The translations under genes and the position numbers were made by a program. This document shows positions 21,851 through 55,483 of a DNA stretch of 64,000 nucleotides, piece by piece. The DNA is taken from IMG/VR virus record IMGVR_UViG_3300027733_000039, positions 1 through 64,000 of that record; one strand, written 5' to 3'. This stretch comes from a virus. Numbering within the stretch: the first letter of the stretch is position 1; every line of letters begins with the position of its first letter. The notes under the pieces are model-generated. The model did no database searches. It was not told the origin of the DNA and was given only the letters and a program-made list of their open reading frames with translations.

Positions 21851-22911
21851 GGATCGGGGTTGCCAGTGGTGACTTCCTGTCCGCTCAGAAGTCCGCAGAT
21901 GGTGAACACCATTGGGGAGGTTCGGGCTGGGCACGGTATGGTCAGTACATCGGGCGCATTGACTACGAAGTAGTTGTCGGTGTACTCACATGGAAGACCG
22001 ATCACTTCTTTATCAGAGACGAACACGACAACTTGGTAGATGTTGATTGGGTCTTTATGCAACGCTTAATGCATGAGAATCTTCCCGAGCACATTCTTAA
22101 GGCACGTCAATATGGGCAGGTCATTGTGAATGATCTAGACGATTGGTACTGGGGTCTTGACCCATCCAATGACGCATTTATCTCTTCTCACCCAAAGTCC
22201 AACCCCAAAGAGAATCGTAATCATTATAAAGCCGTGCTTGCTTCTAGTACAGCCGTGACCGTGTCTACTCCCTACCTTGCTGATCGCATCAAGTCATGGG
22301 TTCGTTGTCCAATAGTTATATTGGAGAATACGGTGGAAGTCAATCGCTTTACTCCACATATTCACACGGATAGTTCTGTACCTGTAGTCGGGTGGGTTGG
22401 TGCCACGAGCCATCGCTCAGGAGACCTAGAGATCCTAAAAGGTGTTGTGAACCCGCTCATTGTTTCAGGTGACATCAAGTTTCAACATAGCGGTCACTAC
22501 GCTCACGCAAATACTGTTGCCAGCAAGTTGGGGTTACATGATGATCAGGTGAGTGTCCTGCCAGCCGTTGATGCTGTTCAGTACCCATTACTGCTCAACA
22601 TGGATGTCGGTGTTGCACCATTGCGGGACACGCCATTTAACCACGCTAAGAGCGACATCAAACTTCTTGAGTACTCTGCCTCGGGCATTCCATGGATTGC
22701 TTCCTCGTTGTCGGCGTACGAGGGGTTGCGTAAAAAGTGGGGGATTGGTAGGACTGCGAGTAAACCTCAGCAGTGGCTCAAGCATCTAGCGGATCTTCGT
22801 GACCCTGCTAGGCGAGCGTATGAAGGTGAAGCCTTAAGAGAAGCGGTGTGGGCACGAGACATTGAACTCGGCACACACCGCCTCAACTCATTTATTGAAA
22901 GTATCCTTTAG
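21847..22911 (+). CDS. GT-B (GT4-like) glycosyltransferase
   Basis: DLDD, VSTPYL, VGWVG..SH..DL, APL...FN.AKS.IKLLEY...GIP.IAS. Confidence 0.88.
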   Translation: MRIGVASGDFLSAQKSADGEHHWGGSGWARYGQYIGRIDYEVVVGVLTWKTDHFFIRDEHDNLVDVDWVFMQRLMHENLPEHILKARQYGQVIVNDLDDWYWGLDPSNDAFISSHPKSNPKENRNHYKAVLASSTAVTVSTPYLADRIKSWVRCPIVILENTVEVNRFTPHIHTDSSVPVVGWVGATSHRSGDLEILKGVVNPLIVSGDIKFQHSGHYAHANTVASKLGLHDDQVSVLPAVDAVQYPLLLNMDVGVAPLRDTPFNHAKSDIKLLEYSASGIPWIASSLSAYEGLRKKWGIGRTASKPQQWLKHLADLRDPARRAYEGEALREAVWARDIELGTHRLNSFIESIL

Positions 22912-23241
22912 TTTCGTTCGTTGCTCAGTGGTCATGGATGTCATGCTCTTGCCACCCCATATTCCATACTGGATGTCGTTCTTGATGGCAAAACGAAGGC
23001 ACTGGATCTGCACAGGACAGCCTTTGCATATCTCTTTGGCTTGCTTCTGTGCTTCTATGACAGTCTTAGTCCTGCGTTCGTAAAGCCCAGCAAACCATTT
23101 GTCGGTGCCTTCTTTACGACAGAGAGCGAACTCTCTCCAGTCACCTACTTCAGGGAACTTCAACCCAAGAGTGTCTGAACGCCACCAAGAGTCAGGCAAG
23201 GTGTTAGTGGGGGATTGCTCCCCCACTGCTACCTCGGACAT
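22888..23241 (-). CDS. whiB: WhiB-family transcription factor
   Basis: WREFALC, AKEICKGCPVQIQCL, GIWGG. Confidence 0.9.
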   Translation of the reverse strand: MSEVAVGEQSPTNTLPDSWWRSDTLGLKFPEVGDWREFALCRKEGTDKWFAGLYERRTKTVIEAQKQAKEICKGCPVQIQCLRFAIKNDIQYGIWGGKSMTSMTTEQRTKLKDTFNK

Positions 23242-24281
23242 TATGCCATCACCACATCGTGGAGCGTACGGATGACTTGGCGATCAAACTCATCGCCCTT
23301 GCCATTGAGTGCATTGAGTGCATTGCGCTCAACACGGCTCTCCATCTTGCCTACATAGTGTTGCTGGTAGGTGTTGAATGCCTGCAACACACCGAGACCC
23401 GTTCCGATCCATGGTGCCACCCGTGGATCGTATTTGTACAGGTGTCGTACGGCTTCTTGCTTGTTCTGAGCACGGCTGACCGACTGTGGTCGTGCATCGG
23501 TGCCCACAACAGTTGGCATGAGGCGCTCTACAATGGCGTCCCACTCTGATGCAGTAACAACCATGCTGGACAGACGCTCAATCTCGGCGCTGAAGTCCTC
23601 TGCCATGGTGTGAATGATGCCGAGGGCGTCACGGATGCTCTGCACACGACCGTTGCTGTTCTTGCTGTGGCGTGTCTTGAACTGGCTACCGTCCTCGGAG
23701 AGCGCTCCAGCAAGCGTGTTATCACAAACTACCGCAGTGATGCACCGTTTGAAGGTGGTGGCAAGAGTGCCGTTGTGGCTCGTTGTTGCCAACAAGTGTG
23801 GACGGAAGTCAAAGCCAGCCGAAGTGCTGATGCTCTCAGGCATCTCAATGCTGACCCAAGCGACTCCACCATTGCGGAGCAAGCCCGCAGAACCGATCTG
23901 CAAGTTGCTGTCATCAATGACGTTGGACACGGTGTCCAGCAACCATTCATCGTATTGGTGGATGGCGTAGGTGTCCTTGAAGAGACCGAGAGTCTCGTAG
24001 GTGTCGTTGCGCACGATTGCCTTGCGATCATCTTGTGGGATGAACTTCATGGCACCTTCAGTGTCACTCTTCAAGTCAGGGACTTGCACGAACACTGGTG
24101 CTTCAATTGCCTTCCAATGGAAGAGACGGCGCCGTACATCGGACACAGGAATCGCTCCCGTGTAATGGTTCGGCTCGCCATGCTGGAGTTCCTTCTTTGA
24201 CCACCATGCCTCGCCACGCTTCTCTGTGAACCCCACGAGGATGTTCCCCGAGTTGAGGTATTCGTATGTTTCTTTGCTCAT
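23241..24281 (-). CDS. DUF932-family phage/plasmid protein
   Basis: SAGLLRNGG, LLATTSHNGT, VVCDNTL, RHSKN. Confidence 0.85.
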   Translation of the reverse strand: MSKETYEYLNSGNILVGFTEKRGEAWWSKKELQHGEPNHYTGAIPVSDVRRRLFHWKAIEAPVFVQVPDLKSDTEGAMKFIPQDDRKAIVRNDTYETLGLFKDTYAIHQYDEWLLDTVSNVIDDSNLQIGSAGLLRNGGVAWVSIEMPESISTSAGFDFRPHLLATTSHNGTLATTFKRCITAVVCDNTLAGALSEDGSQFKTRHSKNSNGRVQSIRDALGIIHTMAEDFSAEIERLSSMVVTASEWDAIVERLMPTVVGTDARPQSVSRAQNKQEAVRHLYKYDPRVAPWIGTGLGVLQAFNTYQQHYVGKMESRVERNALNALNGKGDEFDRQVIRTLHDVVMA

Positions 24282-24332
24282 TTCATGCTCCTTGTTAGTT
24301 TGATTTGTTTGGATATTCGTACCACGAGGATA

Positions 24333-24361
24333 AATCTACCTTCGTGTATTGCTATTCACAA
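24333..24361 (-). promoter_or_regulatory. Promoter for DUF932-whiB
   Basis: Minus strand TTGTGA-17-TAGATT. Confidence 0.55.
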
Positions 24362-24377
24362 CTTTTATTTAATTTAT

Positions 24378-24668
24378 TTATGGTTTACTTTTGAGGTTGA
24401 TGACCTGCCCAATTTGTAAGAGCGTCCCGTACTCATCTACGAGGTCATCCACGGCTGTGGAGATATTGCCCCAGCAATGCTGGACGGCAATCTGCCACAG
24501 GGTGTCACCCTGATAGACGATTACTGGCTCCGTGTCACACGAGTAGGTGTTCATCCTTTTGTCGTAGTCACGGTAAGCCCACACGGCGAAGCATGCCCCT
24601 GCTACTACGAGCAGAGTAATGAATCCTCGTGTGACTCTTTGATTAAGGGCTTCATAGTTGTTTCTCAT
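24378..24668 (-). CDS. Membrane-anchored LysM-domain protein
   Basis: TM helix, then VYQGDTLWQIA...LQIGQVINL; GGAG RBS. Confidence 0.8.
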   Translation of the reverse strand: MRNNYEALNQRVTRGFITLLVVAGACFAVWAYRDYDKRMNTYSCDTEPVIVYQGDTLWQIAVQHCWGNISTAVDDLVDEYGTLLQIGQVINLKSKP

Positions 24669-24919
24669 ATCGTGTTCTCCATCTCTCGGTGTCTGAGTGC
24701 TTCTTTGGCTTCTTCTTGTTGCCACAGGTAGTCGGCGTAGTCGGTACCCGATGCCACCAAGGCTCCACAAGTACATGTGGCTTCACCTTCGGTGTCATCG
24801 GGGTACATGGTTACGGTTTCATTCCATAAGCGACCGCATCCAGTTTCACAAAAGAATGCGAGTTCTTGATCTATCTCATCCCACGGTGTCCACCCACCTA
24901 ACGGTCTACGCCGACTCAT
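24665..24919 (-). CDS. Small Cys-containing hypothetical protein
   Basis: CETGCG...CTCG; coupled ORF. Confidence 0.6.
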   Translation of the reverse strand: MSRRRPLGGWTPWDEIDQELAFFCETGCGRLWNETVTMYPDDTEGEATCTCGALVASGTDYADYLWQQEEAKEALRHREMENTI

Positions 24920-25467
24920 GACAGAGCCTCGTAGAGTTCGTCAAACTCGGTGTCCAGCCATTCTTTGAATGCTTTTGGCTCAGGTGTGAGCACCGAGATG
25001 CCCATGCTGAACACATTGCTCGTGGGATCAGCCACGATGGCTACAGCCACTGGTGGTATGACATCACCAACAAGGACTGATTCAGCCCACTGGTTGAATG
25101 TTGCTTTACGATCAGCGATGGGATCACCCCAAGACCCAGTTGTCCAGCCGTTCATGACGTCTGTCCAACCTTCAATGGTGGTCTCATAGTGCCCACGCCA
25201 CGCATCACTGTGGATGTACTCACGATTGATTGTGATTTTAGATCGGTACATGTCATCGCCGTATTCATCCATGCGAATATGATCTCCGATGTAGTACTTG
25301 CGTACTACGCCGTCATCCACAAGTTGCACAGTTGAAGAATGATTCTGATCTGACTCGTAGCAACCCCAGCAGAGGTAATCCTCTTTGACGGTGCTCCATC
25401 CGAAGTCACCTTCGGCGTCCACGATCTCCTCGCATTCACAGCACTTATTCTCTGTGTCTTCGCTCAT
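24916..25467 (-). CDS. Hypothetical acidic protein with an N-terminal Zn finger
   Basis: CCEC...LCWGCYE; DAWRGHY. Confidence 0.7.
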   Translation of the reverse strand: MSEDTENKCCECEEIVDAEGDFGWSTVKEDYLCWGCYESDQNHSSTVQLVDDGVVRKYYIGDHIRMDEYGDDMYRSKITINREYIHSDAWRGHYETTIEGWTDVMNGWTTGSWGDPIADRKATFNQWAESVLVGDVIPPVAVAIVADPTSNVFSMGISVLTPEPKAFKEWLDTEFDELYEALS

Positions 25468-25811
25468 TATTCTGCTCCTTCTCCATAGGTGTCTACTTTG
25501 ATTGTGATGTCTTCATCAAACTCACATGGAATTGCTGTAATGAAGTAACCGATGCGGTTGACCATGTGCCAACCATCAACGATGTATGAGCCATCATTAC
25601 CATCTACCCATGTCCACACCTTGTGTGGCTGGACGCTGGCAACCTTCATGACGTAGTCGTACTCGGCTCCGTAGGTCTCGTACATGACTCCACCTTCATA
25701 TCCACTTTCATCTGATGTCCCCCACGATGCATCTTTGTCAAGATGATTCATGACGGGCTTGTACTTCTCTTCCCATTGCTCTACTGACATTGTTATTGCT
25801 GTCTTATTCAT
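25467..25811 (-). CDS. Hypothetical protein
   Basis: ETYG.E..YV, VWTWVDG, GWHMVNRIGYFIT; hairpin-SD leader. Confidence 0.75.
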   Translation of the reverse strand: MNKTAITMSVEQWEEKYKPVMNHLDKDASWGTSDESGYEGGVMYETYGAEYDYVMKVASVQPHKVWTWVDGNDGSYIVDGWHMVNRIGYFITAIPCEFDEDITIKVDTYGEGAE

Positions 25812-25813
25812 TT

Positions 25814-25933
25814 GAACCTCCTCAGATTCTTTAACTCAGGGGTGTGACACAGTGTCTTCACCCCGTGGATGCTCTACCCCGATCAGTGAGCAGAGCATCC
25901 ACGGGATGACACCAGCCGAGGCTGATGGCACCC
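25814..25933 (-). ncRNA. Cassette leader L1: type-A structured element (divergent) + SD hairpin
   Basis: Minus strand: P1 CATCAGC/GCTGGTG, long P2 CCCGTGGATGCTCTGCTC/GGGTAGAGCATCCACGGG, P3 GACA/TGTC; GAATCT-GAGG-AGGTTC. Confidence 0.7.
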
Positions 25934-25956
25934 TATTACTGGCTCGTACAAGCCTC

Positions 25957-26223
25957 TCAGGACTCGTTTAACGACTCTTTAATCCAATCTAAGTCAATGC
26001 TGTAGAGAAACACAAAGTGTCCCTCGGGTGCACGAAACTTAATGTAACCACCCGAGAAGTCATCTTCAAACTGCTCGTTGACATTGCCGATGTGCTTGAG
26101 TTTGGCTACTTCTTCAACCCCGTAGTACTCGTTGGTATTGACGGAGGGGATCAAGAGACCCGACTCCACCAAGTCCTTACGAACGGTGTAGTACCCGCTC
26201 CCTATTTGAACGAATCGGATCAT
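25957..26223 (-). CDS. Hypothetical protein
   Basis: GGAGG RBS; coupled ORF. Confidence 0.6.
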   Translation of the reverse strand: MIRFVQIGSGYYTVRKDLVESGLLIPSVNTNEYYGVEEVAKLKHIGNVNEQFEDDFSGGYIKFRAPEGHFVFLYSIDLDWIKESLNES

Positions 26224-26420
26224 TGCTCACCTCCGCATCGGCAGTTGCCATTGCATGGAGCGAACTGTGTTTGCCGAGAGTCCCAGCCATTCTCAGTGCA
26301 CTTGACACACCTCCACTCATCTGAAGGTAGGTCAGGTGCTGGTCTGAAGTCATGATTACACATGATCACCACTGTCGGCACCGATCCCTCGGTTTTGAAG
26401 TGTTCCATGACGCTCTTCAT
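26220..26420 (-). CDS. Small Cys-rich protein
   Basis: CNHDF...WRCVKC...CNGNCRC. Confidence 0.55.
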   Translation of the reverse strand: MKSVMEHFKTEGSVPTVVIMCNHDFRPAPDLPSDEWRCVKCTENGWDSRQTQFAPCNGNCRCGGEQ

Positions 26421-26629
26421 ACGAACACCTCTGCTTTAATGATCTTGGCGAAAGGCACTTCAATTTCACGGAACTCACCTTCGCCATGGTGCGGGCTGTC
26501 CTCGGTGAAGATCACCACTGATGTGTCAGTGATGTCCATGACATCTCCGATGTACACCCACTGCTCTTGTGGGTATATCTGCACAAGGAGTTCAACCTGA
26601 TCACCGATGTTGAGACTCAGTGTGTCCAT
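26417..26629 (-). CDS. Small beta-rich hypothetical protein
   Basis: GGAGG RBS; TGATG coupling. Confidence 0.6.
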   Translation of the reverse strand: MDTLSLNIGDQVELLVQIYPQEQWVYIGDVMDITDTSVVIFTEDSPHHGEGEFREIEVPFAKIIKAEVFV

Positions 26630-26916
26630 CAGTAGTCCTCCCCATCGTCAATGAATGACTCAAGATGATGCGAGTCCACGATTGCCCACGCTGGAGCCAG
26701 TGGTTGCCCACGCCACAACACACCTTCAGGGAGTGTGATGTTGACATCGGTATTTCCTGCACTCACATTCTCAATCGCCAGTACGCACACATCAAGCATG
26801 CTCAATGGTACGGGTGGGTAGTGATTGGATGTTAGGTGCCACGAGAGCGCCTGTCGTAGTTCAATGAGACCGTCCACGACAGCATCATTCATTCCTATTG
26901 CATTCATGCTTCCCAT
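26629..26916 (-). CDS. Hypothetical protein
   Basis: HLTSNHYPPVP...IVDSHHLESF; TAATG coupling. Confidence 0.7.
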   Translation of the reverse strand: MGSMNAIGMNDAVVDGLIELRQALSWHLTSNHYPPVPLSMLDVCVLAIENVSAGNTDVNITLPEGVLWRGQPLAPAWAIVDSHHLESFIDDGEDY

Positions 26917-27098
26917 TACTTTGCCTCCTCGGCTGTCCATGGTGCCTCAAAGCCCACGCTCTCTTTCCATTTGAGCGCAACTTCTAGTTCGTCCTCATCA
27001 AGGTGATAGAACTTGTCAAAGGCTTCTGCCTCGGATCTCGCTTCCACCTCGTATCCATAGTCAATGGTTTCATTGACTCTTACTATCCACTTGCTCAT
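26916..27098 (-). CDS. Small acidic protein (VEARSEAEA motif)
   Basis: Directly follows leader L2. Confidence 0.65.
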   Translation of the reverse strand: MSKWIVRVNETIDYGYEVEARSEAEAFDKFYHLDEDELEVALKWKESVGFEAPWTAEEAK

Positions 27099-27102
27099 AA
27101 CT

Positions 27103-27217
27103 GACCTCCTCAGGTCTTAGGGATTAATTAATGTATCGGGCATTGAGTGCCCTCACAACCCACAAACAATGTCTGTGGGCTGTGAGCGCACCATGGCGTG
27201 AGCCATGATGCACCCGA
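27103..27217 (-). ncRNA. Cassette leader L2: type-A element + SD hairpin
   Basis: P1 GCATCATGGC-TCAC-GCCATGGTGC; P2 CTCACAGCCCACAGAC/GTTTGTGGGTTGTGAG; P3 GGGCA/TGCCC; GACCT-GAGG-AGGTC. Confidence 0.8.
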
Positions 27218-27469
27218 TCAGGATGCGTCCTCCAGTTGGTATGAGACAACGATAAAGTCTTCACCGTTGTTGCCCATGAGTCCCTTCAGTTGCTCCTCGC
27301 CATCCTCGCAGTAGAAGAAGATCCGATCATCTCGCTGTCCGAGAGAATCAAAGTCCTCACTGATCTCGTTGTCGTATGAGCCGAACGAGAAGTACCGTTC
27401 GTCCTCCACGCCTGAGTCAAACCACTTGATGACTGCCCATGCACCCATAGGTGCTCCGATGTTGCTCAT
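27218..27469 (-). CDS. Hypothetical acidic protein
   Basis: GGAGG RBS; DDRIFFYC. Confidence 0.65.
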   Translation of the reverse strand: MSNIGAPMGAWAVIKWFDSGVEDERYFSFGSYDNEISEDFDSLGQRDDRIFFYCEDGEEQLKGLMGNNGEDFIVVSYQLEDAS

Positions 27470-27471
27470 TG

Positions 27472-27669
27472 CTATTCCTCCGTTTCTTTGTCAATTTCAA
27501 TCATTTCGTACAACACTTGCTCTAGCACTTCGTTGCCGAGTTCCACGATTCTCTCGTGTACATACCCTTCAACTTCTTCCATTGCTTCAATGGCTTCTTC
27601 TTTTGTCCAGTGTGGGTACATTGCTTTTGCATCTTCCCACGACCACTTCACGACAACTTCAGTTGCCAT
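27472..27669 (-). CDS. Small acidic protein
   Basis: AGGAGG RBS; TAATG coupling. Confidence 0.65.
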   Translation of the reverse strand: MATEVVVKWSWEDAKAMYPHWTKEEAIEAMEEVEGYVHERIVELGNEVLEQVLYEMIEIDKETEE

Positions 27670-27911
27670 TAGAAGCCTCCTTCTTCTTCATTAATTGATT
27701 GGTACAGGTTATTCCAAACCTCTTCGTTCACTGAGTCATACCCGCCTTCGGCGTCAAACTCTTGAATGGCTTTGAGCCATTCGTCTGAGTCTGCCGACAA
27801 TGGTTCTTCAGGTGTACCTGTAGAGAATAAGTCTGATTCCCACCAAGAGATAGCGATCTCTTCGTCAGGATTGATCTCACTCAACAGTTCAATTGCTTTG
27901 CTTACCTTCAT
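27669..27911 (-). CDS. Hypothetical protein, paralog of 28087..28446
   Basis: MKVS..I..L...PDEE.AI.W...W.KAI. Confidence 0.65.
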   Translation of the reverse strand: MKVSKAIELLSEINPDEEIAISWWESDLFSTGTPEEPLSADSDEWLKAIQEFDAEGGYDSVNEEVWNNLYQSINEEEGGF

Positions 27912-28087
27912 TGCTGTTCTCCTTTGTAGGTTGCTTCTAATGTTCTTTCATCCCATCCAATGATGGATGCTTCGCTTGCTGTTGTGATGTAATCCATTGC
28001 ACACACCATGTCATTGTTATCGCTGTATGTTTCTATTGCTAGGACGAGTGTGACCTCAACCAGTTTGGTTGTTGCTAATGCTTTCAT
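27908..28087 (-). CDS. Small hypothetical protein (59 aa, not in the ORF track)
   Basis: MKALATTK...GEQQ*; AGGAGG RBS; coupled at both ends. Confidence 0.55.
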   Translation of the reverse strand: MKALATTKLVEVTLVLAIETYSDNNDMVCAMDYITTASEASIIGWDERTLEATYKGEQQ

Positions 28088-28446
28088 TACTTGCCCTCCT
28101 TTGGGCTTTTGATCTCTGACACGATGTCAGACATCCACTTGATGTTGTATGCGTTGATCTTCTCAATGGTGCTGAGAACATCGGGCACGACTTCGCTTAC
28201 TGGCTCACTGTGTTCCTTCAAGCATTCAAGGATGTCATAGAGCGTCTCGTTGGCGTATTCATCCAACAGTTGAAGCCAAGACATCTGATTGATTGCTTCG
28301 CTCCAGTGGTCTGCCGATGGGGCTTCTTGATACCCAGTCTCTTCGTCAGGAACAGTGAAGTCATTGCGATCAAGCCACCTGATGAGCAATTCATCATCGG
28401 GCTGGTACACAGCATTCAACACATTGATTATTGCACTTACTTTCAT
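28087..28446 (-). CDS. Hypothetical protein, paralog of 27669..27911
   Basis: MKVSAII.VL...PDDELLIRW...WSEAI; follows leader L3. Confidence 0.7.
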   Translation of the reverse strand: MKVSAIINVLNAVYQPDDELLIRWLDRNDFTVPDEETGYQEAPSADHWSEAINQMSWLQLLDEYANETLYDILECLKEHSEPVSEVVPDVLSTIEKINAYNIKWMSDIVSEIKSPKEGK

Positions 28447-28449
28447 GGC

Positions 28450-28553
28450 GCCTCCTCAGGCATTACTTAATTGAACATCGGATGATGTTCTGACAATACA
28501 TTATCGGTGTGACAATGTACTGTCAGAACACCACGGACTTGCGCCCGTGATGC
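28450..28553 (-). ncRNA. Cassette leader L3: type-A element + SD hairpin
   Basis: P1 GCATCACGGGC-GCAA-GTCCGTGGTGT; P2 TCTGACAGTACATTGTC/GATAATGTATTGTCAGA; P3 GAACATC/GATGTTC; GCCT-GAGG-AGGC. Confidence 0.8.
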
Positions 28554-28556
28554 ACT

Positions 28557-28638
28557 GATGGTGTACCTCCATGAGGACAGAGGCACCCCGATAGTCGCTA
28601 CTGGCGCCGACCATGATGGCGCCGAGCGCCAATGATCA
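28557..28638 (-). ncRNA. Reduced type-B element plus a relic SD hairpin with no ORF
   Basis: TGATCAT-TGGCGC...GCGCCA-GTAG-CGA(CTA)TCG, then GTCCTCATGGAGGTACACCATC. Confidence 0.55.
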
Positions 28639-30165
28639 ACCGCCGTTACCGACAATCCCATCAATGAGTGACTGGGTGATGCTTCCACCCTCGGCACCCA
28701 TGTCCTCACCGTATCCCGTTAGTACTGCGGATACCGCTTCGTGCTTTGCATTCAACAATGCCCACATACGATCATCAATCGTAGGTGTCGCATCGCTGTT
28801 GCTGTCTACAGCCAAGAGCCACCACGCCACGACAGAGTTGACCTGTCCAATGCGGTGTGCTCTATCTTCCGCCTGTGTGGCGGACGATGGTGTCCACGGC
28901 ACCTCAGCCATCACGACATGGGACGCACTCGTAAGAGTGAGACCCACACCAGCGCTGTCGTAGTTGCCGATGAACACCTTGGCGTCACCTGTCATGAAGT
29001 CATCTACTGACTTCTGCTTCTCAGCATCACTCATGCCACCGACTACCTTGACCACTCCGTGCTGTTGTAATGCATCGGAGAGACCACTGATGACATCCCT
29101 GTGATGACCGAACACGATGACCTTCTCGCCTTGAGCGACAAGTTCTTCTACATGCTCAACCACATAGGGGATCTTTGCGATACCGAGTTGGTGACGTAGT
29201 GCATTGAGCCGTGTGATGACCTCTGCTTTGGATGCCTTCTGCCATGCTTCAACACCGCCATTGGCGATGACAAAGTCACGGAAGTCATTCTCAGCATGTC
29301 GGTATGCCTTGAGGTCAGTCTCGCTGATCTCTACAGCAACCTGCGCACGGCGCTTGGCTGGGAGTTCCGTCAACACATCTGTTTTGTTACGCCTCACATA
29401 GCAGGTGCCACGCAATTTGTCATTCAATTCAGTTGTGTTAGTCGCTCCGTTGTACACATAACCCCAACCATTGTGGATGGGTTCGCAGTAACGAAAGAGG
29501 AACGCTGACTTGCCACCGAACACTCGGTCAAGTCTGCCAATCAATGACAGAGGTGACACCAGTTCGTTGGGTCTGTTCACGATGATCGTGCCCGAGAGCA
29601 ACAGCACATACCCTTCAGTCGGAATTGACTTTGCGATGTATGCCACGCCCTTGGTGCGTCCACTCTTAGCGCTCTTCAAGCGATGTGCTTCATCAACGAT
29701 GAGGCAACCAAACTTACCCGTGAACTTCATTGCCCATGCATTGATGATTGAGTCACCAACGATCACGACATCAGTTTGAGGTAGAGCGCCAACCTTGTTG
29801 CCCTTCACGATGGCTACAGTGAGCCATGGTGCGAACATCTTCAGCGAGCGCTCCCAGTTTGTGCGAAGAGATGCAGGTACAACGATGAGGACTTTGTGCC
29901 CTTCGTTGTGCGCATTCACTGCGACTGCGATTGCTTGTGGAGTCTTACCGAGACCCATCTCGTCACCCAAAATACAACGCTTCTGCTTGATCGCATAAGC
30001 GACACCAGCACGCTGGAATGGATAGAGAGGCTCGGCGAGGTCTACAAGGGTCTCGCTGTCATGTGCACTGCTCAGAGCATGTAATGAAGCGTCAGGCAAA
30101 ATTGCTGGCGCCACACGATCAAGCCCCGAGAGTAACGCACTCAGTTCTTCTAATTGTGTATTCAT
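28636..30165 (-). CDS. SNF2-family helicase (SMARCAL1/HARP-like)
   Basis: LYPFQRAGV, GDEMGLGKT, VDEAH, LSGT, GVGLTLT, QAEDRAHRIGQ. Confidence 0.92.
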   Translation of the reverse strand: MNTQLEELSALLSGLDRVAPAILPDASLHALSSAHDSETLVDLAEPLYPFQRAGVAYAIKQKRCILGDEMGLGKTPQAIAVAVNAHNEGHKVLIVVPASLRTNWERSLKMFAPWLTVAIVKGNKVGALPQTDVVIVGDSIINAWAMKFTGKFGCLIVDEAHRLKSAKSGRTKGVAYIAKSIPTEGYVLLLSGTIIVNRPNELVSPLSLIGRLDRVFGGKSAFLFRYCEPIHNGWGYVYNGATNTTELNDKLRGTCYVRRNKTDVLTELPAKRRAQVAVEISETDLKAYRHAENDFRDFVIANGGVEAWQKASKAEVITRLNALRHQLGIAKIPYVVEHVEELVAQGEKVIVFGHHRDVISGLSDALQQHGVVKVVGGMSDAEKQKSVDDFMTGDAKVFIGNYDSAGVGLTLTSASHVVMAEVPWTPSSATQAEDRAHRIGQVNSVVAWWLLAVDSNSDATPTIDDRMWALLNAKHEAVSAVLTGYGEDMGAEGGSITQSLIDGIVGNGG

Positions 30166-30170
30166 GGTTA

Positions 30171-30262
30171 TACCTCCTCAGGTAATTGTTATGGACTTGC
30201 GTCCTCACAGCACACGAGCATACCCGTGTACTGTGAGCACGCCACACCGTGAGGTGTGACGC
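30171..30262 (-). ncRNA. Cassette leader L4: type-A element + SD hairpin
   Basis: P1 GCGTCACACC-TCAC-GGTGTGGCGT; P2 CTCACAGTACACGGG/CTCGTGTGCTGTGAG; P3 GGAC-GCAA-GTCC; TACCT-GAGG-AGGTA. Confidence 0.8.
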
Positions 30263-30269
30263 CCTCGGG

Positions 30270-30995
30270 CTAGAAGCCCAACCTGCTTGCGCAGTCATTG
30301 CCGATGCCACGCTTGCGTGTCACCTCATCAGTGAGATGCCGACCGCACGCACCACACTGTCCAATCTCTTGACCGAACAGCGCCTGTGCTTGCTTACGAC
30401 CCTCGTCCGTGAGACCTGCAATGCGCTTGATCGCATGCAGAGCACGCTCACCCGACAACTTTGCATCCTTGTGACCACCAACGACCATGTAAATGCTTCG
30501 CTGACCCTTCATGGAAGGATTATGGAAGCCCTTGTTGGTCTTGATGGCGTAGAACACGAGGTCATTGGTGCCCGATGATGTCATCGCATAGAAGCCATCA
30601 GCAATGGTGCCGAAGGATTCATTGGTCAACTTGTCGGGGACGATAGCGCTCTCCGCAGAGCAGTCACCTTGCTTGTGGTAGGTAGCCCACTTGCCTGCAT
30701 TGAGCAATGCGTGACCAGTACCTGTCCGCACTGGATGCCCACAGAGGGCACACGGGTTGGCGTACTTGTTTACGATGATGCGCTCTGCTTTGGGCAAGTG
30801 ATCTGTGCCCACACGCTTGACTTCAATCTTGCGAATGGCGTCAATGGCGAATGATGCTGACTTGGCAGTGAGTTCATTGAGTGTGTTATCGGTGATGTAC
30901 TGATCCACTTGCTCTTCGTTGAGACCAAGTGTTGAAGCACGCTCCAATAACAGCGTCTTAATGAACGCCTGTTGCTTTGGTGTTATTGCACCCAT
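30270..30995 (-). CDS. DUF6011-like Zn-finger protein
   Basis: TPKQQAFI N-terminus, NKY..PC..CG, C-terminal CGACGRHLTDEVTRKRGIGNDC. Confidence 0.75.
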   Translation of the reverse strand: MGAITPKQQAFIKTLLLERASTLGLNEEQVDQYITDNTLNELTAKSASFAIDAIRKIEVKRVGTDHLPKAERIIVNKYANPCALCGHPVRTGTGHALLNAGKWATYHKQGDCSAESAIVPDKLTNESFGTIADGFYAMTSSGTNDLVFYAIKTNKGFHNPSMKGQRSIYMVVGGHKDAKLSGERALHAIKRIAGLTDEGRKQAQALFGQEIGQCGACGRHLTDEVTRKRGIGNDCASRLGF

Positions 30996-30999
30996 GGTG

Positions 31000-31112
31000 A
31001 GAACCTCCTCAGATTCTGTTTTGTATGTGTAGGTGGACTTGCGTCCTCGTGATGCATCAGTTGGGGGAACCGATGTACCACGAGCACGCCACGACTCACG
31101 CCGTGACTGCCC
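31000..31112 (-). ncRNA. Cassette leader L5: type-A element + SD hairpin
   Basis: P1 GTCACGGC-GTGA-GTCGTGGC; P2 CTCGTGGTACATCGGTT/AACTGATGCATCACGAG; P3 GGAC-GCAA-GTCC; AGAATCT-GAGG-AGGTTCT. Confidence 0.8.
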
Positions 31113-31124
31113 ATTGCTGATTAC

Positions 31125-31379
31125 TCACGCATTGGCGAGTTGGGAAGTGATGTTTGCAATTGCTTGCCACAGCACTGTCTCCATGTCAACGGTGTCACTG
31201 ACGAACAGCGTGATCGTTGACTCCAACTTTGCGTAACCGAATGACTCTTTGTCCTGCTCCCACTGGGGACGGCTGAACGCCAAATCTTCGTACTCAATCA
31301 CGAGATCAATCGTCTTGAGACATGGGTTATCGGACTTCTCAATCCGTAACCCAGTTACTTTGTGAATACTTGCATCCAT
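31125..31379 (-). CDS. Hypothetical protein
   Basis: Single-gene cassette after L6. Confidence 0.7.
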   Translation of the reverse strand: MDASIHKVTGLRIEKSDNPCLKTIDLVIEYEDLAFSRPQWEQDKESFGYAKLESTITLFVSDTVDMETVLWQAIANITSQLANA

Positions 31380-31382
31380 GGT

Positions 31383-31483
31383 GCCTCCTCAGGCTTTGTT
31401 AGTTGGGCACATTGTATGCCCTCACAATGCACGAGCCAACGCCCATGCACTGTGAGGACACCACGAGTTCACACTCGTGATGC
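31383..31483 (-). ncRNA. Cassette leader L6: type-A element + SD hairpin
   Basis: P1 GCATCACGAGT-GTGA-ACTCGTGGTGT (the loop contains the upstream stop codon); P2 CTCACAGTGCATGGGC/GCTCGTGCATTGTGAG; P3 GGGCAT/GTGCCC; GCCT-GAGG-AGGC. Confidence 0.8.
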
Positions 31484-31945
31484 ATCGGTCAGCCTCCACT
31501 GACCTGATTGAAGTTGGAAACGCTCGTACAAGGTGTGCAGTAGTGATGCATGCTGTATTGAGATGTGATCTCGCACGATGTTCACGAACGCATGACGCCA
31601 GCACTCATTGTGCCCACGCTCGCCACATACAATGTGAGCAAGTTCGTGAGCCAGTGTGAGCACTGTCGTACTGGAGCCACTGATGCCGATGATACTTCGC
31701 TTCTCATCAGCGACACCTGCCCACTTGGTGGAGCGTATGCGATCAACCACGGGCGTATTCCAGCCCTCGGTCTCACACACACGATCCAGCCAAGCGTATG
31801 CATCCTTGGTGGCGATCACTTGCGATGGCAAGTAACGAGACACCACATGCTCTATTGCGTACACCGTGGCTTGATGCTCGGGCATCTTGGGAGAGCGCTT
31901 CTCAACGCTCCCCCGTACCTCGTCAATGTAGGCGTGAATGCTCAT
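31469..31945 (-). CDS. HExxH metallohydrolase (TIGR04338/SprT-like)
   Basis: VYAIE, LAHELAH...GH...W. Confidence 0.75.
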   Translation of the reverse strand: MSIHAYIDEVRGSVEKRSPKMPEHQATVYAIEHVVSRYLPSQVIATKDAYAWLDRVCETEGWNTPVVDRIRSTKWAGVADEKRSIIGISGSSTTVLTLAHELAHIVCGERGHNECWRHAFVNIVRDHISIQHASLLHTLYERFQLQSGQWRLTDASRV

Positions 31946-32631
31946 CGTCCGAGCGCTCCAGCGACACCGTTACCGATGCCACCACTGGAGAACGAAAGAC
32001 CAGCACTACGACCAGCCGAGTACCCACTGCCCGATGAATATCGGGAGTAGCCAGCAGACTTGAGCGATACTTTCGCACGCATCTCAGTGTCTGCACGCTT
32101 GAACTTGTCAGCGAGTACCAAACCAGTGCCAACACCTTGCTCTGCGATCACTTCGTTCTTGGACTTGGTCAACACTTCACGCACACCCGCCGAGAATCCC
32201 AGCCACCACGCACTGCGGAATGACCGATCACCCTTGGGGATCACACGAGAAGCGAGCAAGTCTGCCGATGCGAACAGCGTCCTGACAGCGAAGATGTCAC
32301 CTGCGGTGCCATACACCACCAGCGACAACACCTTCTTACCATCTTTCCACGATGTGGAGCGATAGCAAGCGACTGAGTTGGCTTTGGCGATCGCTCCAGC
32401 GAGTGCTAGACGGCGAAGTTGCCATTTGCCACCAACTTCAATGATGTTGGTCACGATGTTCTCATTGCGATCTTGAGCCTTGGCGAATGCGGACTCTTCA
32501 AGACCGTGCTTCATCATCAACTTCTGTGCCATGGCGAGAGCCGTTTCGGCTTCCGCTTGTGGCGTGTTGGGATGATTGGCACGATCAAGGATTGCCTGCA
32601 CCTTGTCATAGATTGCTTCTGATTTATTCAT
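31942..32631 (-). CDS. DUF2786-domain protein
   Basis: KVQAILDRA..PNTPQAEAETALAMAQKLMMKHGL; R.AWWLGF; SGYSAG. Confidence 0.85.
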   Translation of the reverse strand: MNKSEAIYDKVQAILDRANHPNTPQAEAETALAMAQKLMMKHGLEESAFAKAQDRNENIVTNIIEVGGKWQLRRLALAGAIAKANSVACYRSTSWKDGKKVLSLVVYGTAGDIFAVRTLFASADLLASRVIPKGDRSFRSAWWLGFSAGVREVLTKSKNEVIAEQGVGTGLVLADKFKRADTEMRAKVSLKSAGYSRYSSGSGYSAGRSAGLSFSSGGIGNGVAGALGR

Positions 32632-32635
32632 GGTT

Positions 32636-32736
32636 ATACCTCCTCAGGTATCTAGATTGGGCAAATGCCCACACTGATCACCGACTCACGCCGATGAACA
32701 CTGTGGGCACCACGAGATCGCTCCCGTGATGCTCCC
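32636..32736 (-). ncRNA. Cassette leader L7: type-A element + SD hairpin
   Basis: P1 GCATCACGGGA-GCGA-TCTCGTGGTGC; P2 CCACAGTGTTCATCGGC-GTGA-GTCGGTGATCAGTGTGG; P3 GGGCA/TGCCC; ATACCT-GAGG-AGGTAT. Confidence 0.8.
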
Positions 32737-32752
32737 GACTACCAGTCGCTGT

Positions 32753-33070
32753 TTACTCGCTGTCCTCCTCGTCCTCTTCCGAGTATCCCTCGGGCATTGA
32801 GATCGTAGGGAAGTACACGATGACCGAGTCACGACCCATGCTGTCCGAGCGCACACATCGGAGCAAGATCGTCCCGAGAGTTTGTGCGTTCGCATCAGCC
32901 AATTCAAGACCGAGAATCAAGAATGTTGAAGCCTCGTCCTCGGTCACAATGCCGAAGCACTGGTCTCCGTACATCGCACGACCCGAGTACTGCATGACAG
33001 TGCCCGCTTCGTGTTGATCCAGTATCTCGGTGATCAATTCAAGATCATCTACTGTTAGTTGATATGCCAT
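32753..33070 (-). CDS. Hypothetical protein
   Basis: YSGRAMYGDQCFG...DSMG...IVYFP; single-gene cassette. Confidence 0.75.
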   Translation of the reverse strand: MAYQLTVDDLELITEILDQHEAGTVMQYSGRAMYGDQCFGIVTEDEASTFLILGLELADANAQTLGTILLRCVRSDSMGRDSVIVYFPTISMPEGYSEEDEEDSE

Positions 33071-33073
33071 GGT

Positions 33074-33180
33074 GACCTCCTCAGGTCTGTTACTTGATTG
33101 GGCGAAATGCCCTCACGATGCACCGATCACTTGACCGATGCACCGTGAGGACATCACGAGGTTGCCCCCGTGATGCTCCC
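33074..33180 (-). ncRNA. Cassette leader L8: type-A element + SD hairpin
   Basis: P1 GCATCACGGGG-GCAA-CCTCGTGATGT; P2 CTCACGGTGCATCGGTC/GATCGGTGCATCGTGAG; P3 GGGC/GCCC; GACCT-GAGG-AGGTC. Confidence 0.8.
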
Positions 33181-33182
33181 GA

Positions 33183-33401
33183 TCACGCACTGTGATCAAC
33201 TGAATGGTCGTACCCCTCGGGGTACCACGCATCACCGCAGGTCGCACAGGTGTAGCCATCGGGGTATCCGATGTCCCACGCTTCAGCGAACTCCAGTGCC
33301 TTACCTTCTCGTAAGGCTTCTGCTTGGTAGTAGTCGGCGCACACAAGGCACACCAATTCTCTATCGTCCATCACTTGACCAATTACGACTATGTCCCTCA
33401 T
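33183..33401 (-). CDS. Small Zn-finger protein
   Basis: CLVC...CATCG; ATGA coupling. Confidence 0.6.
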   Translation of the reverse strand: MRDIVVIGQVMDDRELVCLVCADYYQAEALREGKALEFAEAWDIGYPDGYTCATCGDAWYPEGYDHSVDHSA

Positions 33402-33913
33402 GATGCACTCACCTTGAACTTGGCAACGATCGCCTCAAGTAGAGGCTCACCCTGTCGGGCAGTTGCCATGTCCACACCGAGCAGTGCCGAGACTTGCTCT
33501 ACGAGCGAGTCGTAGTGCGCATCTCGGTCACGCTCTTCGGTGAACGATTCCATCATGCGAATCTGCTCCTCTTCAAGGAACTCATTGAGCGACATCGTGG
33601 TGTAAACACCAGCGATGTCCTGCGGACGCAGTCGGTAGTTGAGACCACTGTTCACCTTCATTGATGGAAGGCGCTCAGGAATGATGTCACCGTTGTACTG
33701 CAATCCTTGTTGACGCCCACGATCTCTTGTGATCGTGCGACCTTTCAACTTGGTGACTTTGCGGGTCTTCGTAGATGAAGTCCTCCACGAGGTGCCCACC
33801 TCCACTTGCTCTTCAAGCACTTCGTCAATGATGAAGTACCCATTGAACTTGGCGCTCATGAAGACCGCTTCGGGACTGACACTCAGAATTGCTCTGATTT
33901 CATTTGCTTTCAT
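33398..33913 (-). CDS. Hypothetical protein
   Basis: Follows leader L9. Confidence 0.7.
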   Translation of the reverse strand: MKANEIRAILSVSPEAVFMSAKFNGYFIIDEVLEEQVEVGTSWRTSSTKTRKVTKLKGRTITRDRGRQQGLQYNGDIIPERLPSMKVNSGLNYRLRPQDIAGVYTTMSLNEFLEEEQIRMMESFTEERDRDAHYDSLVEQVSALLGVDMATARQGEPLLEAIVAKFKVSAS

Positions 33914-33917
33914 GGTT

Positions 33918-34011
33918 GACCTCCTCAGGTCTTATCGTCACGACACGGGATGTGTCGCTAGTCCCCAGTGCTCATTGAAGAGCCACGCCCTAGGCGCTGG
34001 GGGAATGATCA
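33918..34011 (-). ncRNA. Cassette leader L9: type-B (tRNA-elbow-like) element + SD hairpin
   Basis: TGATCAT-TCCCCCAG-CGCC(TAG)GGCG-TG-GCTC(TTCAAT)GAGC-A-CTGGGGA-CTAG-CGACAC(ATCCC)GTGTCG; GACCT-GAGG-AGGTC. Confidence 0.8.
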
Positions 34012-34527
34012 GCCGTATGTGACCTCACCGAGCAGGATGAACTGCACGATGGCATCAGCCACGATGGCGTCACAATCGCACTCAAACTCGTCAATGGCAT
34101 TCTCACCGAACAGGTAGCACCCTGCTAGAGCGCTCACTCGCTTGACTGGTAGTTGACCGTAGTCAGGCACGCTGTCCTGATTGAACTCACCCGTGCCGAT
34201 CTTCTCAATGAAGTCAGCAATGATGGACTCACTGATCACGAGTGGCGTGCCGAAGCGGTAGAACCCGCCCCAACCGTTGAAGCCATCGTCATCGGTCAAC
34301 TTCGCCAATTCGGCTTCGTCTTCCACCAATTCACACGCTTCCATGTCGTACAGAGTGACCGATGCGAAGTGTTCGTTGCCGTCCAATTCGCTTTCGCCCA
34401 GTTCCGTGCCCCATGTGTAGGTGCTGTTGGCAACCGCCCACGATGCGATCCCGTAGGAACCGCCCTCGTACGCAGTGCTCAGGATGCTTGCCCCGAGATT
34501 GAGTAGTTGTTGTCTTGTTGCTTTCAT
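34009..34527 (-). CDS. Hypothetical acidic protein
   Basis: TAYEGG...W; DAIVADAIVQ..LLGEVTYG C-terminus. Confidence 0.75.
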   Translation of the reverse strand: MKATRQQLLNLGASILSTAYEGGSYGIASWAVANSTYTWGTELGESELDGNEHFASVTLYDMEACELVEDEAELAKLTDDDGFNGWGGFYRFGTPLVISESIIADFIEKIGTGEFNQDSVPDYGQLPVKRVSALAGCYLFGENAIDEFECDCDAIVADAIVQFILLGEVTYG

Positions 34528-34530
34528 GGT

Positions 34531-34621
34531 GTGCCTCCTCAGGCATATTCACGACACTTGCGTGTCGCTAGTCCCCAGTACCGATTGAACGGTCACGCCT
34601 GAAGCGCTGGGGGATTGATCA
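34531..34621 (-). ncRNA. Cassette leader L10: type-B element + SD hairpin
   Basis: TGATCAA-TCCCCCAG-CGCT(TCA)GGCG-TG-ACCG(TTCAAT)CGGT-A-CTGGGGA-CTAG-CGACAC(GCAA)GTGTCG; ATGCCT-GAGG-AGGCAC. Confidence 0.8.
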
Positions 34622-34626
34622 CGCAC

Positions 34627-34863
34627 TCAGCCGATCGTGAGCAACGCTGACAGGTACGGCAACTTGACGCCCCTGTTGGCAAGTTCGCTTGCGCAGATCT
34701 CTGCGATTGCATCCTTGATGATCTCTGAGCGGGTGTTGAGACCGTCCGATTTCTTCAGAATGTGCAGGAGTTCTGCATCGCTAAGTGCCCGTACATCGGC
34801 GCTGTAGTGAGCGATGTATTGCTCTCGCTTGCGAATGTTTGCGGGTGTGTTCTTGTATGTCAT
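34627..34863 (-). CDS. Hypothetical protein, first gene of the leftward block
   Basis: Follows leader L11. Confidence 0.65.
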   Translation of the reverse strand: MTYKNTPANIRKREQYIAHYSADVRALSDAELLHILKKSDGLNTRSEIIKDAIAEICASELANRGVKLPYLSALLTIG

Positions 34864-34868
34864 GGTGT

Positions 34869-34993
34869 GTCCTCCTCAGGACTGCACTGGCAGTGAGCCA
34901 GTGGAGCGTGGTGCGCTCAATCAGGACTGGAGCGGGGGAGAACCTCCAGCCCTCATTGAGCGCCACGAGCAAGCCGAAGCAAGCCCGTGACGC
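34869..34993 (-). ncRNA. Cassette leader L11: type-A element + SD hairpin
   Basis: P1 GCGTCACGGGC/GCTCGTGGCGC; P2 CTCAATGAGGGCTGGAG/CTCCAGTCCTGATTGAG; P3 GAGCG/CGCTC; extra CACTGGC/GCCAGTG stem; GTCCT-GAGG-AGGAC. Confidence 0.75.
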
Positions 34994-35072
34994 TGAGGAA
35001 TTTATTGAACCATGTTTTGATTCTTCAGTTGTCAGGAGCGCATGAGCGCCAAGCCAAGCAATCGGCAGAACG

Positions 35073-35096
35073 ACAAAGAGCGACCCGAAGGTCGCT
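35073..35096 (-). terminator. UUCG hairpin with a weak U-tract in the leader of the leftward block
   Basis: AGCGACC-TTCG-GGTCGCT-CTTTGT. Confidence 0.45.
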
Positions 35097-35154
35097 TTCC
35101 GTGTGAGCCGATTGTCAAGGAACCTGCGAAGGAAGCGGTACCGCCTTCACAAAT

Positions 35155-35184
35155 AGTCTTCCACATGGAGGGTACATCTGTCAA
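35155..35184 (-). promoter_or_regulatory. Candidate early promoter for the leftward block
   Basis: TTGACA-18-AAGACT with a TGN extension and an AT-rich upstream tract. Confidence 0.45.
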
Positions 35185-35604
35185 TAGGCAATTGAATAAT
35201 TCTTGAGAATCTTTTGAGCCATGCCCCATGGGCTGGAGCGGGCTGGGGGCTGGAATATGGCGCCCCAAGCGACAGCCATCCATCGGATGGAGGAGGAGAT
35301 AGAGGCATTGGAGGGTAGATCAGGAGATGCCCTGAGAAGCGTCAGGATGCGCTGTGGTGCGATGTACAGCGATATGGAGCGATGGTGCAGTGGATAGCAA
35401 TACAGGCGATTGTGGGGTACGTTGTACACCTACCTATACCCCGCATCCCCTTACCCAGCAAGGGTTATAGCCCTATTCCTAAGCCACTTAGATGCCTCAG
35501 GATGCGTTTAAACGCTGAGAACGCCTCATTGTGCCAAAACGCCTCTGCGCCTCTTAGAACGGCTTAGGAAGCGAGGGCACATGGGTGGGCACCTTGTCAA
35601 CTAT

Positions 35605-50763: not shown

Positions 50764-50764
50764 T

Positions 50765-55304: not shown

Positions 55305-55483
55305 TGCCTGCACCAATTGATTTCCCTAACTCTCCATCTTCTGGAGATGAATACGTAGCAGGCGGTATGGTTTGGCGCTATCTTAATGGTGTTTGGAAGC
55401 GCTTCCCACAAACTGTTTCTGATAGCGGTTTTTCTGATACACCTCTCAACGCTTATTTTGTAGATGATGGTGGAGGCGCATAA
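55304..55483 (+). CDS. Stand-alone IDFPNSP module (59 aa, not in the ORF track)
   Basis: MPAPIDFPNSP...W.Y..GVW...DGGGA*; TAATG coupling at both ends. Confidence 0.65.
   Translation: MPAPIDFPNSPSSGDEYVAGGMVWRYLNGVWKRFPQTVSDSGFSDTPLNAYFVDDGGGA

Follow-up and report, generated by a model that had tools for sequence, protein, structure and literature searches.

What does a structured repeat do that recurs in gap after gap between the small genes of a single phage operon? The question is raised by the type-A element, nine copies of which lie in the first 64,000 nucleotides (nt), hereafter the window, of the 97,131-bp IMG/VR record IMGVR_UViG_3300027733_000039, a viral genome rated complete by CheckV. 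The plus strand carries almost all genes, the sole exception being a leftward block at 22888-35283 (minus strand) that consists of small genes of unknown function, many of them ORFans, together with DUF-domain genes and an SNF2 helicase gene. As judged from its gene content and divergent position, this block is probably an early operon. We read the type-A element, with a probability of about 0.5, as an intercistronic messenger RNA (mRNA) module for punctuation, stabilisation or processing, which also serves as the joint at which the cassettes of an array recombine.

Three abutting hairpins on the sense strand of a leftward operon

All nine copies listed in the initial annotation are present, the coordinates given there being the low-coordinate (3') ends. 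At each of the nine sites three hairpins (P1, P2 and P3) follow one another with 0-2 unpaired bases between neighbours, as that annotation had described, and the fold lies on the minus strand, the strand that is sense for the 22.9-35.3 kb block. A plus-strand reading of the element was ruled out because the genes and the stable fold are both on the minus strand. Strict type-A elements are about 75-85 nt long. P1 follows the consensus GCAUCACGG-loop-CCGUGGUGY, P2 is a stem of 13-17 bp with the base CUCACAG...CUGUGAG, and P3 occurs in the variants GGGCA/UGCCC, GGAC-GCAA-GUCC and GAACAU/AUGUUC, after which come, in the 5' to 3' direction, an A/U-rich linker, the Shine-Dalgarno (SD) motif CCUGAGGAGG and the start codon. 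Every long gap of the operon holds an element, and genes without such a gap overlap one another.

The minimum free energy of the nine sites on the sense strand ranged from -39 to -67 kcal/mol (z -4.5 to -9.2), and 0 of 200 shuffled sequences were as stable. The antisense fold was weaker by 10-22 kcal/mol, an asymmetry between the strands that follows from the frequent G.U pairs. A covariance model built from seven window copies recovered exactly seven copies in a search of the whole 97-kb genome, with scores of 64-83 bits on the sense strand and at most 34 bits on the antisense strand. At 25839 and 34885-34993 the overall plan and the P1 core are preserved, yet these two copies are too divergent for the model; the former gave no match at E<=1, and the ortholog of the latter, L036:2274-2367, reached 42 bits. 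An independent MAFFT/RNAalifold analysis of the seven window copies returned the same structure with 17 covarying pairs.

Near-identical copies exchange C(GCAA)G, G(UUCG)C, C(UACG)G and GUGA loops. In the P3 'GGAC' class the GCAA loop is invariant, and the G and C of this loop belong to the alternative helix described below. The G.U asymmetry, the GNRA/UNCG loop swaps and the invariant GCAA loop of P3 argue that the selected form is RNA, not DNA. Rfam 15 at gathering thresholds gave 0 matches in the whole window, and a permissive Rfam search of 25700-35300 gave only sub-threshold chance matches, the best being PyrR at the 25839 copy (35.7 bits against a cutoff of 54).

Covarying stems around an invariant CAUC/GGUG box

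Relatives were gathered in two ways, by helicase similarity (14 contigs, 79-97% identity) and by a DNA pattern (25 contigs). In every relative gathered, 10-13 kb held five to eight copies, without exception on the sense strand; the two contigs with a 31%-identical helicase carried none. The alignment comprised 96 matches representing 63 distinct copies from about 20 related viral contigs; as the copies are related to one another, the counts given for them are not independent events. Standard pairs filled 96.8% of the cells in the 63 distinct copies, compared with 81% in shuffles and 30-45% in shifted registers, an agreement somewhat inflated by fitting of the alignment to the covariance model. 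Double changes were present at 24 of the 29 pairs.

Amid these covarying stems lies a box of 4-5 bp without covariation, the P1 version of which is made up of the pairs C-G, A/G-U/C, U.G, C-G and A-U. The near-invariant U-G wobble reported earlier for P1 is borne out, with U.G in 61 of 63 distinct copies, next to C-G (63/63) and A-U (62/63). The apical half of P2 repeats a 5'-CAUC/GGUG-3' box, with C-G in 63/63, A-U in 62/63 and U.G in 45/63 distinct copies. Stability alone does not demand such a box, and its presence suggests that a protein or nuclease recognises it or that concerted evolution has been strong.

The P2 apex (GUGCAUCGG-loop-CCGGUGCAU type, e.g. 31448-31430, minus strand) resembles P1 (GCAUCACGG-loop-CCGUGGUGC) in all strict copies. 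Because of this resemblance P2 may be a P1-like hairpin mounted on a CUCACA/UGUGAG stem, and its apex hints that P2 arose through an internal duplication or that a single protein has two sites to bind.

The element occurs in a single phage group only (25 IMG/VR contigs). A host origin resembling that of repetitive extragenic palindromic (REP) sequences or miniature inverted-repeat transposable elements (MITEs) was rejected: a pattern scan of 185,579 prokaryote genomes returned 33 matches, 0 of which matched the covariance model, and no true copy was found in these genomes. Five matches in actinobacterial metagenome-assembled genomes (L048, L060, L063, L065 and L074; Actinomycetota/Ca. Nanopelagicales; freshwater) were chance matches of the P1 pattern in a conserved coding gene.

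A conserved alternative helix and two folds

The 3' arm of P1 ends in five bases that can pair with the five bases immediately following P2, the latter making up the 5' arm of P3. Owing to this complementarity P2 can grow by five pairs at the cost of outer P1 and P3, and the element has two mutually exclusive folds, the three-hairpin arrangement (fold A) and that with the extended P2 (fold B). Exchange of partners had been proposed from the window copies, and it is conserved in homologs, so the lack of conservation that the initial annotation named as refuting the idea did not materialise. The alternative helix is 93% paired in the 63 distinct copies (91.9% in a 42-copy alignment), against 21-59% in shifted-register controls of this helix alone (42 copies) and 30-56% in a joint count that includes P0, the helix closing fold B. 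One of its pairs is U-A in 42 copies and C-G in 21 without exception, and another is C-G in 26, U-A in 26, U.G in 5 and mismatched in 6. Four of the five alternative pairs covary, and at least 10 combinations of arms occur, all but one of them compatible. Both divergent copies retain the complementarity with other sequences, namely GUGUC/GACAC at 25839 and GCGC/GCGC flanking P2 at 34885-34993. Since the outer P1 pairs and P3 covary too (P1 94% and P3 100% paired), both folds have evolutionary support.

Together with the extension, P2 measures 18-24 bp (mode 21). The idea that the length of P2 acts as a molecular ruler was set aside as suggestive only, the distribution being broad (13-17 or 18-24 bp), and P0, which is just 71% paired and has one pair mostly unpaired, is not claimed as a conserved helix.

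Constrained folding of 42 copies gave a mean free-energy difference between the folds (ddG) of -0.5 +/- 2.1 kcal/mol (range about -4.8 to +3.5), with fold A favoured in 30 of the 42. The probability of fold A varied from 0.03 to 0.99 across copies, with extremes of 99% fold A and 87% fold B; fold-B 'probabilities' above 1, an artefact of enforcing a non-canonical pair, were disregarded. In these models the balance between the folds is near iso-energetic on average yet untuned. Within the window, the minimum free energy structure of copy 2 (numbering as in Table 1) is the alternative fold, with P2 extended to 32710-32665 (fold A -44.2 versus fold B -44.4 kcal/mol), copy 4 prefers fold B (p about 0.87), and the folds of copy 5 differ by at most 0.1 kcal/mol.

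Formally, the topology is that of an attenuator, in which outer P1 is the 1:2 helix, the P2 extension the 2:3 helix and P3 the 3:4 helix. The output helix of an attenuator is not present: P3 lacks a U-tract, and the SD motif sits in a hairpin of its own 11-27 nt downstream. Of the conformational switch suggested in the initial annotation, the two exclusive folds have held up as conserved, and their topology fits an attenuator, whereas the untuned balance, the absence of a visible output and the weak closing helix speak against it.

Stop codons, linkers and Shine-Dalgarno hairpins

Where the upstream frame was clear (79 copies), the stop codon begins 8-10 nt ahead of P1 in 42 cases, 12-14 nt ahead in 4, 17-30 nt ahead in 25 and within P1 in 8; copies of the 31405 type have it in the P1 loop. 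Given these distances, a terminating ribosome could fray outer P1 in about two thirds of the copies. The element at 31405 had been described as having the upstream stop codon in its P1 loop, and this is correct: the TGA (31471-31469) of a 158-aa gene forms part of a GUGA tetraloop. The more general proposal that the element senses translation termination upstream finds no such backing, because the distance from stop to P1 varies and in 25 of the 79 copies the stop is at least 17 nt away, beyond a terminating ribosome.

The A/U-rich linker from P3 to the SD motif is 10-25 nt long, and CCUGAGGAGG lies 5-8 nt before the ATG. Nine exact copies of the motif are found on the minus strand of the block, and the remainder of the genome has one. 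Its flanks covary (GA..UC, UA..UA, G..C, GAAU..GUUC) and form a 4-6-bp hairpin with GAGG in the loop (e.g. 33086-33074).

No U-tract follows P3 at any of the nine copies, where the sequence is A-rich (AAUCAAG, AACUAAC, AUAACAA and similar), and a terminator scan called 0 of the 9. Pairing of the released P3 strand with the SD hairpin was looked for and none was found. Since P3 has neither a U-tract nor complementarity to the SD hairpin, no output of a switch is visible. A search for sigma-70-like promoters returned 8 sites compared with 11.6 +/- 3.6 expected, with no consistent site in or after the elements and one 9/12 match inside the 31405 copy.

Cassette shuffling at the elements

Open reading frames (ORFs) of oriented loci were clustered into families by a simple heuristic, some spurious small ORFs being included. 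The order of families R4-R5, R6, R7-R8, R9 and others differs among relatives, including a contig with a 97%-identical helicase, and R11 and R12 (DUF6011 and helicase) are fixed in relatives. Mosaicism was assessed by giving each element labels for the flank on either side and for the sequence classes of P1, of P2, and of P3 plus linker. The trailer of the helicase gene keeps P1-P3 intact before four downstream gene clusters (three start types in another alignment), with the break in the linker/SD. The leader of an 84-aa gene has its P2-P3-linker-SD segment travelling along with it behind five different upstream genes. The element at 31405 (copy 3) is a chimera of P1 from the trailer of the 158-aa gene, which overlaps the stop codon of that gene, and P2-P3 from the leader of the 84-aa gene.

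Because the elements are mosaic at these boundaries, crossovers are placed before P1, at the P1|P2 junction and after P3, so that cassette recombination inside the element becomes visible at nucleotide resolution. The pattern of breakpoints fits homologous exchange between dispersed repeats, as in the promoter-early stem-loops (PeSLs) of T4-type phages (PMC2839356).

Likeness to known repeats between phage genes

The three-hairpin element appears to be of a kind already known in other phages, in which start-associated and extended start-associated sequences (SAS/ESAS), PeSLs and the RNase III sites of T7 resemble it. The closest layout is that of SAS/ESAS in Cluster K mycobacteriophages and Cluster EF Microbacterium phages (PMC3203893, PMC7302621), and the likeness is one of layout only. 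Both families have a conserved asymmetric motif that contains the SD, has self-complementary ends and stands a few nt (3-8) before start codons in many copies; in both, inverted repeats with variable spacers precede this motif in the intergenic gaps of actinophage-type genomes; and both occur in a single orientation within one phage group and are retained though the flanking genes differ. There is no sequence similarity, the motif being CCUGAGGAGG here and GGGAUAGGAGCCC in Cluster K, and neither the SAS/ESAS consensus (Cluster K GGGATAGGAGCCC, Cluster EF GGGAAAGGACCCC) nor the 17-bp inverted repeat was matched by the motif or repeat of the present phage. Type-A also has three abutting hairpins where SAS/ESAS have one 17-bp inverted repeat. 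Unlike in SAS/ESAS, covariation, G.U asymmetry and tetraloops are explicit evidence for selection on the RNA, and a conserved alternative helix is present as well.

PeSL cassettes combine a sigma-70 promoter with a terminator stem-loop (PMC2839356, PMC4122927). They share with type-A a repeated intergenic motif among small accessory genes, at which recombination between copies shuffles, inserts and deletes modules. In type-A, by contrast, no promoter and no U-tract terminator were found, and the conserved part is a multi-helix RNA.

The RNase III sites of the T7 early genes (R0.3, R0.5, R1, R1.1 and R1.3) each consist of one hairpin, about 20 bp long and interrupted by an internal loop, a site of this type calling for about two turns (about 20-22 bp) of double-stranded RNA, and Bs-RNase III sites are found in the Bacillus phages SP82 and SPO1. 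At a T7-type site the upstream message retains the hairpin, which stabilises its 3' end, and a short leader then precedes the SD of the next gene. Type-A sites are likewise structured and placed between the cistrons of a polycistronic, here presumably early, mRNA, where they lie between a stop codon and the next SD in a co-directional block without internal promoters or terminators. They differ in having three hairpins, of which P2 measures 13-17 bp and attains 18-24 bp only if extended.

The trp-type attenuator has the same mutually exclusive topology directly after a translated frame. In type-A, however, P3 (3:4) has no U-tract, a P2 hairpin of 32-42 nt stands between the second and third segments, a full gene and not a leader peptide precedes the element, and the balance of the folds is untuned.

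Proposed function of the element and rival explanations

In the reading favoured here, the type-A module would occupy, on a polycistronic mRNA, the untranslated stretch that runs from the stop codon of one cassette to the ribosome-binding hairpin of the following one. P1, P2 and P3 would fold successively during transcription into a compact, tetraloop-capped cluster without linkers that offers Rho, RNase E and exonucleases no single-stranded RNA, and this cluster would protect the 3' end of the upstream cistron and keep upstream sequence away from the downstream SD hairpin. Whereas strand, structure, conservation, position and mosaicism are observed, the stabilising, insulating and cleavage roles are proposed from the likeness to T7 RNase III sites and, more broadly, to stable hairpins between cistrons. 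The CAUC/GGUG boxes with U.G in P1 and apical P2 would be the likely site of protein recognition. As to the binder, we infer as a first guess a double-strand-specific RNase III-type endoribonuclease, cutting as between the T7 early genes, and as a second guess a phage or host RNA-binding protein. The P2-extension fold, at about two helical turns, would make the better RNase III-like substrate, and a nuclease substrate, which had also been suggested initially, is a plausible part of this reading. At the DNA level, the repeat segments shared among copies (the P1|P2 junction and the linker/SD) would act as crossover points for the swapping and permutation of cassettes.

Several points weigh against this reading. 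A simple stabiliser needs no three helices, conserved box or conserved alternative helix, so that the anatomy is partly unexplained. P2 alone, at 13-17 bp, is short for a classical RNase III site. The box could stem from common descent and gene conversion among repeats and not from protein recognition. No phage RNA polymerase, RNase or RNA-binding protein that could act on the element was recognised among about 60 proteins scanned with Pfam and PHROGs.

The second helix invites explanations in which the element changes its fold. In a translation-sensing switch, a terminating ribosome would hold the 5' arm of P1, the 3' end of P1 would pair with the 5' arm of P3, P2 would extend and P3 would dissolve, altering expression, termination or cleavage at the next cassette. 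The conservation of the alternative helix (93% paired, 4/5 pairs covarying, at least 10 sequence classes, both divergent copies), the near iso-energetic folds (mean ddG -0.5 +/- 2.1 kcal/mol) and the stop codons that in 50 of 79 copies stand inside P1 or 8-10 nt ahead of it, where a terminating ribosome could reach the helix, all agree with such a switch, which we nevertheless consider unlikely: stops 17-30 nt upstream in 25 of 79 copies leave no consistent trigger, the fold preference is untuned (p(fold A) 0.03-0.99), P3 lacks the U-tract or SD complementarity through which an output would be visible, and the helix that closes fold B shows little conservation (71% paired). A bistable RNA junction, in which a terminating ribosome or a protein bound to the two boxes would drive a four-strand exchange between outer P1 and P3 that decides whether the mRNA is cut, stabilised or passed on to the next cassette, is also improbable. 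If it were true, the expression of each plug-in gene would be coupled to that of the preceding one, and a portable, modular 'attenuator without a terminator' would be the standard connector of the phage cassette array. The likeness in layout to SAS/ESAS (PMC3203893, PMC7302621), with a conserved SD motif near the start, inverted repeats before it and restriction to one phage group, raises the further idea of a translational operator, on which a protein bound to the CAUC/GGUG boxes and the SD hairpin would set or time the initiation of each cassette. The near invariance of the box within covarying stems and the association of the P2-P3-linker-SD segment with the 84-aa gene behind five upstream genes accord with it. 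This operator is nonetheless doubtful, as the helicase trailer stays intact while the downstream gene changes four times, showing that linkage to the downstream gene is not general, as the element lies 11-27 nt upstream of an SD that it does not occlude, and as no candidate binding protein was recognised among the scanned phage proteins.

GC-rich stable hairpins directly after stop codons might alternatively stop a fraction of RNA polymerases and so create a gradient of expression along the operon, and a terminator role for hairpin clusters that lack U-trails has been put forward in bacteria, actinobacteria among them (PMC8355165). None of the copies is followed by a T-run, however, the terminator scan flags none, and purified mycobacterial RNA polymerase does not terminate without a U-tract (PMC3993855); nine such sites in series without internal promoters would silence distal genes including the SNF2 helicase, and terminators require neither a conserved box nor three helices. 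This explanation is accordingly given a small chance, and it is unlikely that the elements are only ordinary terminators. The least probable proposal, which we regard as very remote, treats the repeat as a DNA-level element, with single-stranded DNA hairpins or cruciforms serving a recombinase (as in integron attC sites), replication or packaging and the RNA structure as a by-product. A co-directional, promoterless cassette array with a structured repeat at each boundary and a cassette order permuted in close relatives, with breakpoints at the repeats, would suit it. The strong G.U-driven strand asymmetry and the RNA-type GNRA/UNCG tetraloops closed by C-G tell against it, as do breakpoints at several positions of the repeat, which are expected of homologous exchange and not of one fixed crossover, and a Pfam and PHROGs scan of about 60 proteins, which represent part of the ORFs, yielded no integrase or other recombinase.

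Structured repeats between small phage genes are widespread (SAS/ESAS, PeSL, T7 R-sites), and those of actinophages have been unexplained since 2011. The present family is informative in that it offers 63 distinct, densely covarying copies, a U.G box present twice and a second helix backed by covariation, features that permit concrete designs of box mutants and fold-locked variants. If, as favoured above, the module insulates or protects cistrons, it would explain how foreign genes can be plugged into the operon without re-tuning of expression, and synthetic operon insulators would have a natural counterpart in it.

Features of the operon and of the phage

The coordinates of the elements, SD motifs and assigned genes of the leftward block are collected in Table 1. 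Copy 1 lies between the stop codon of a 72-aa gene (33183) and the SD of a 105-aa gene, and copy 5 separates the DUF6011 gene from the SNF2 helicase gene.

Table 1. Type-A elements and other features of the leftward block (all positions in the window; bits refer to the covariance model and kcal/mol to the sense-strand fold)
Feature	Position	Strand	P1	P2	P3	Further data
Copy 1	33100-33178	minus	33176-33151	33150-33111	33110-33102	81.3 bits; -52 kcal/mol, z -8.2
Copy 2	32659-32734	minus	~32732-32708	32707-32668 (core)	32669-32659	77 bits
Copy 3	31405-31486	minus	31483-31458	31457-31420	31419-31407	82.6 bits
Copy 4	31035-31111	minus	31105-31090 (short)	31089-31041 (extended fold)	GGAC-GCAA-GUCC	63.8 bits
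Copy 5	30193-30266	minus	30266-30235	30234-30207	30204-30193 (GCAA loop)	72.6 bits
Copy 6 (helicase trailer)	28473-28557	minus	28553-28528	28527-28489	28488-28475	73.8 bits
Copy 7	27138-27215	minus	27213-27186	27185-27153	27152-27138	79 bits; -51.9 kcal/mol, z -7.6
Divergent copy	25839-25933	minus	25927-25910 (CAUCAGC/GCUGGUG with U.G)	25909-25858 (22 bp)	25856-25846	-63.4 kcal/mol, z -7.8
Divergent copy, operon leader	34885-34993	minus	34989-34964 (UUCG-capped)	34963-34913	34903-34885 (third hairpin)	-66.8 kcal/mol, z -7.9
SD motif of copies 1-7	33084-33076, 32647-32639, 31392-31384, 31012-31004, 30181-30173, 28459-28451, 27113-27105	minus
SD motif of divergent copies	25825-25817 and 34879-34871	minus
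Type B repeat	33914-34008 and 34528-34626; reduced copy ~28558-28635	minus
DUF932 protein gene	23241-24281	minus
SNF2 helicase gene	28636-30165	minus
DUF6011 protein gene	30270-30995	minus
DUF2786/DUF7168 protein gene	31942-32631	minus

The 25839 copy has a 5-bp outer helix (GGGUG/CACCC) around P1-P3, which makes it a cloverleaf-like four-way junction; strict copies are without this helix. A second intergenic repeat, type B, consists of a CCCCAG/CUGGGG outer stem round two small hairpins, followed by another hairpin and then CCUGAGGAGG. Type B also bounds cassettes, alternating with type A in relatives.

Domains of the DUF932, DUF2786/DUF7168, DUF6011 and SNF2 types are common in the early and anti-defence regions of actinophages and in the leading regions of plasmids. 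The phage is a myovirus, with identified genes for tail sheath, baseplate wedge, portal, major head protein and large terminase, and its identified replication genes encode a family-A DNA polymerase, RecA, a DnaB-like helicase, a primase, two SNF2 helicases and a Cas4-like exonuclease. By protein similarity, the closest cultured relatives are phages of Streptomyces, Rhodococcus, Gordonia and Mycobacterium (35-42% identity), and on account of these relatives the host is likely to be an actinobacterium. A search of GenBank phages for a near-identical or close relative found none, and a search for transfer RNA and transfer-messenger RNA genes found none either.

On the plus strand, a 523-aa protein (17397-18968) matches the PHROG family 'queuine tRNA-ribosyltransferase' (DpdA-like transglycosylase), which suggests 7-deazaguanine modification of the phage DNA. 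At least four paralogues of phrog_2295 (315, 319, 313 and 294 aa) are encoded at 52799-61603 (plus strand), with two glycine-rich-domain proteins nearby at 49573-52144, and together these proteins possibly represent a diversified set of tail fibres or receptor-binding proteins.

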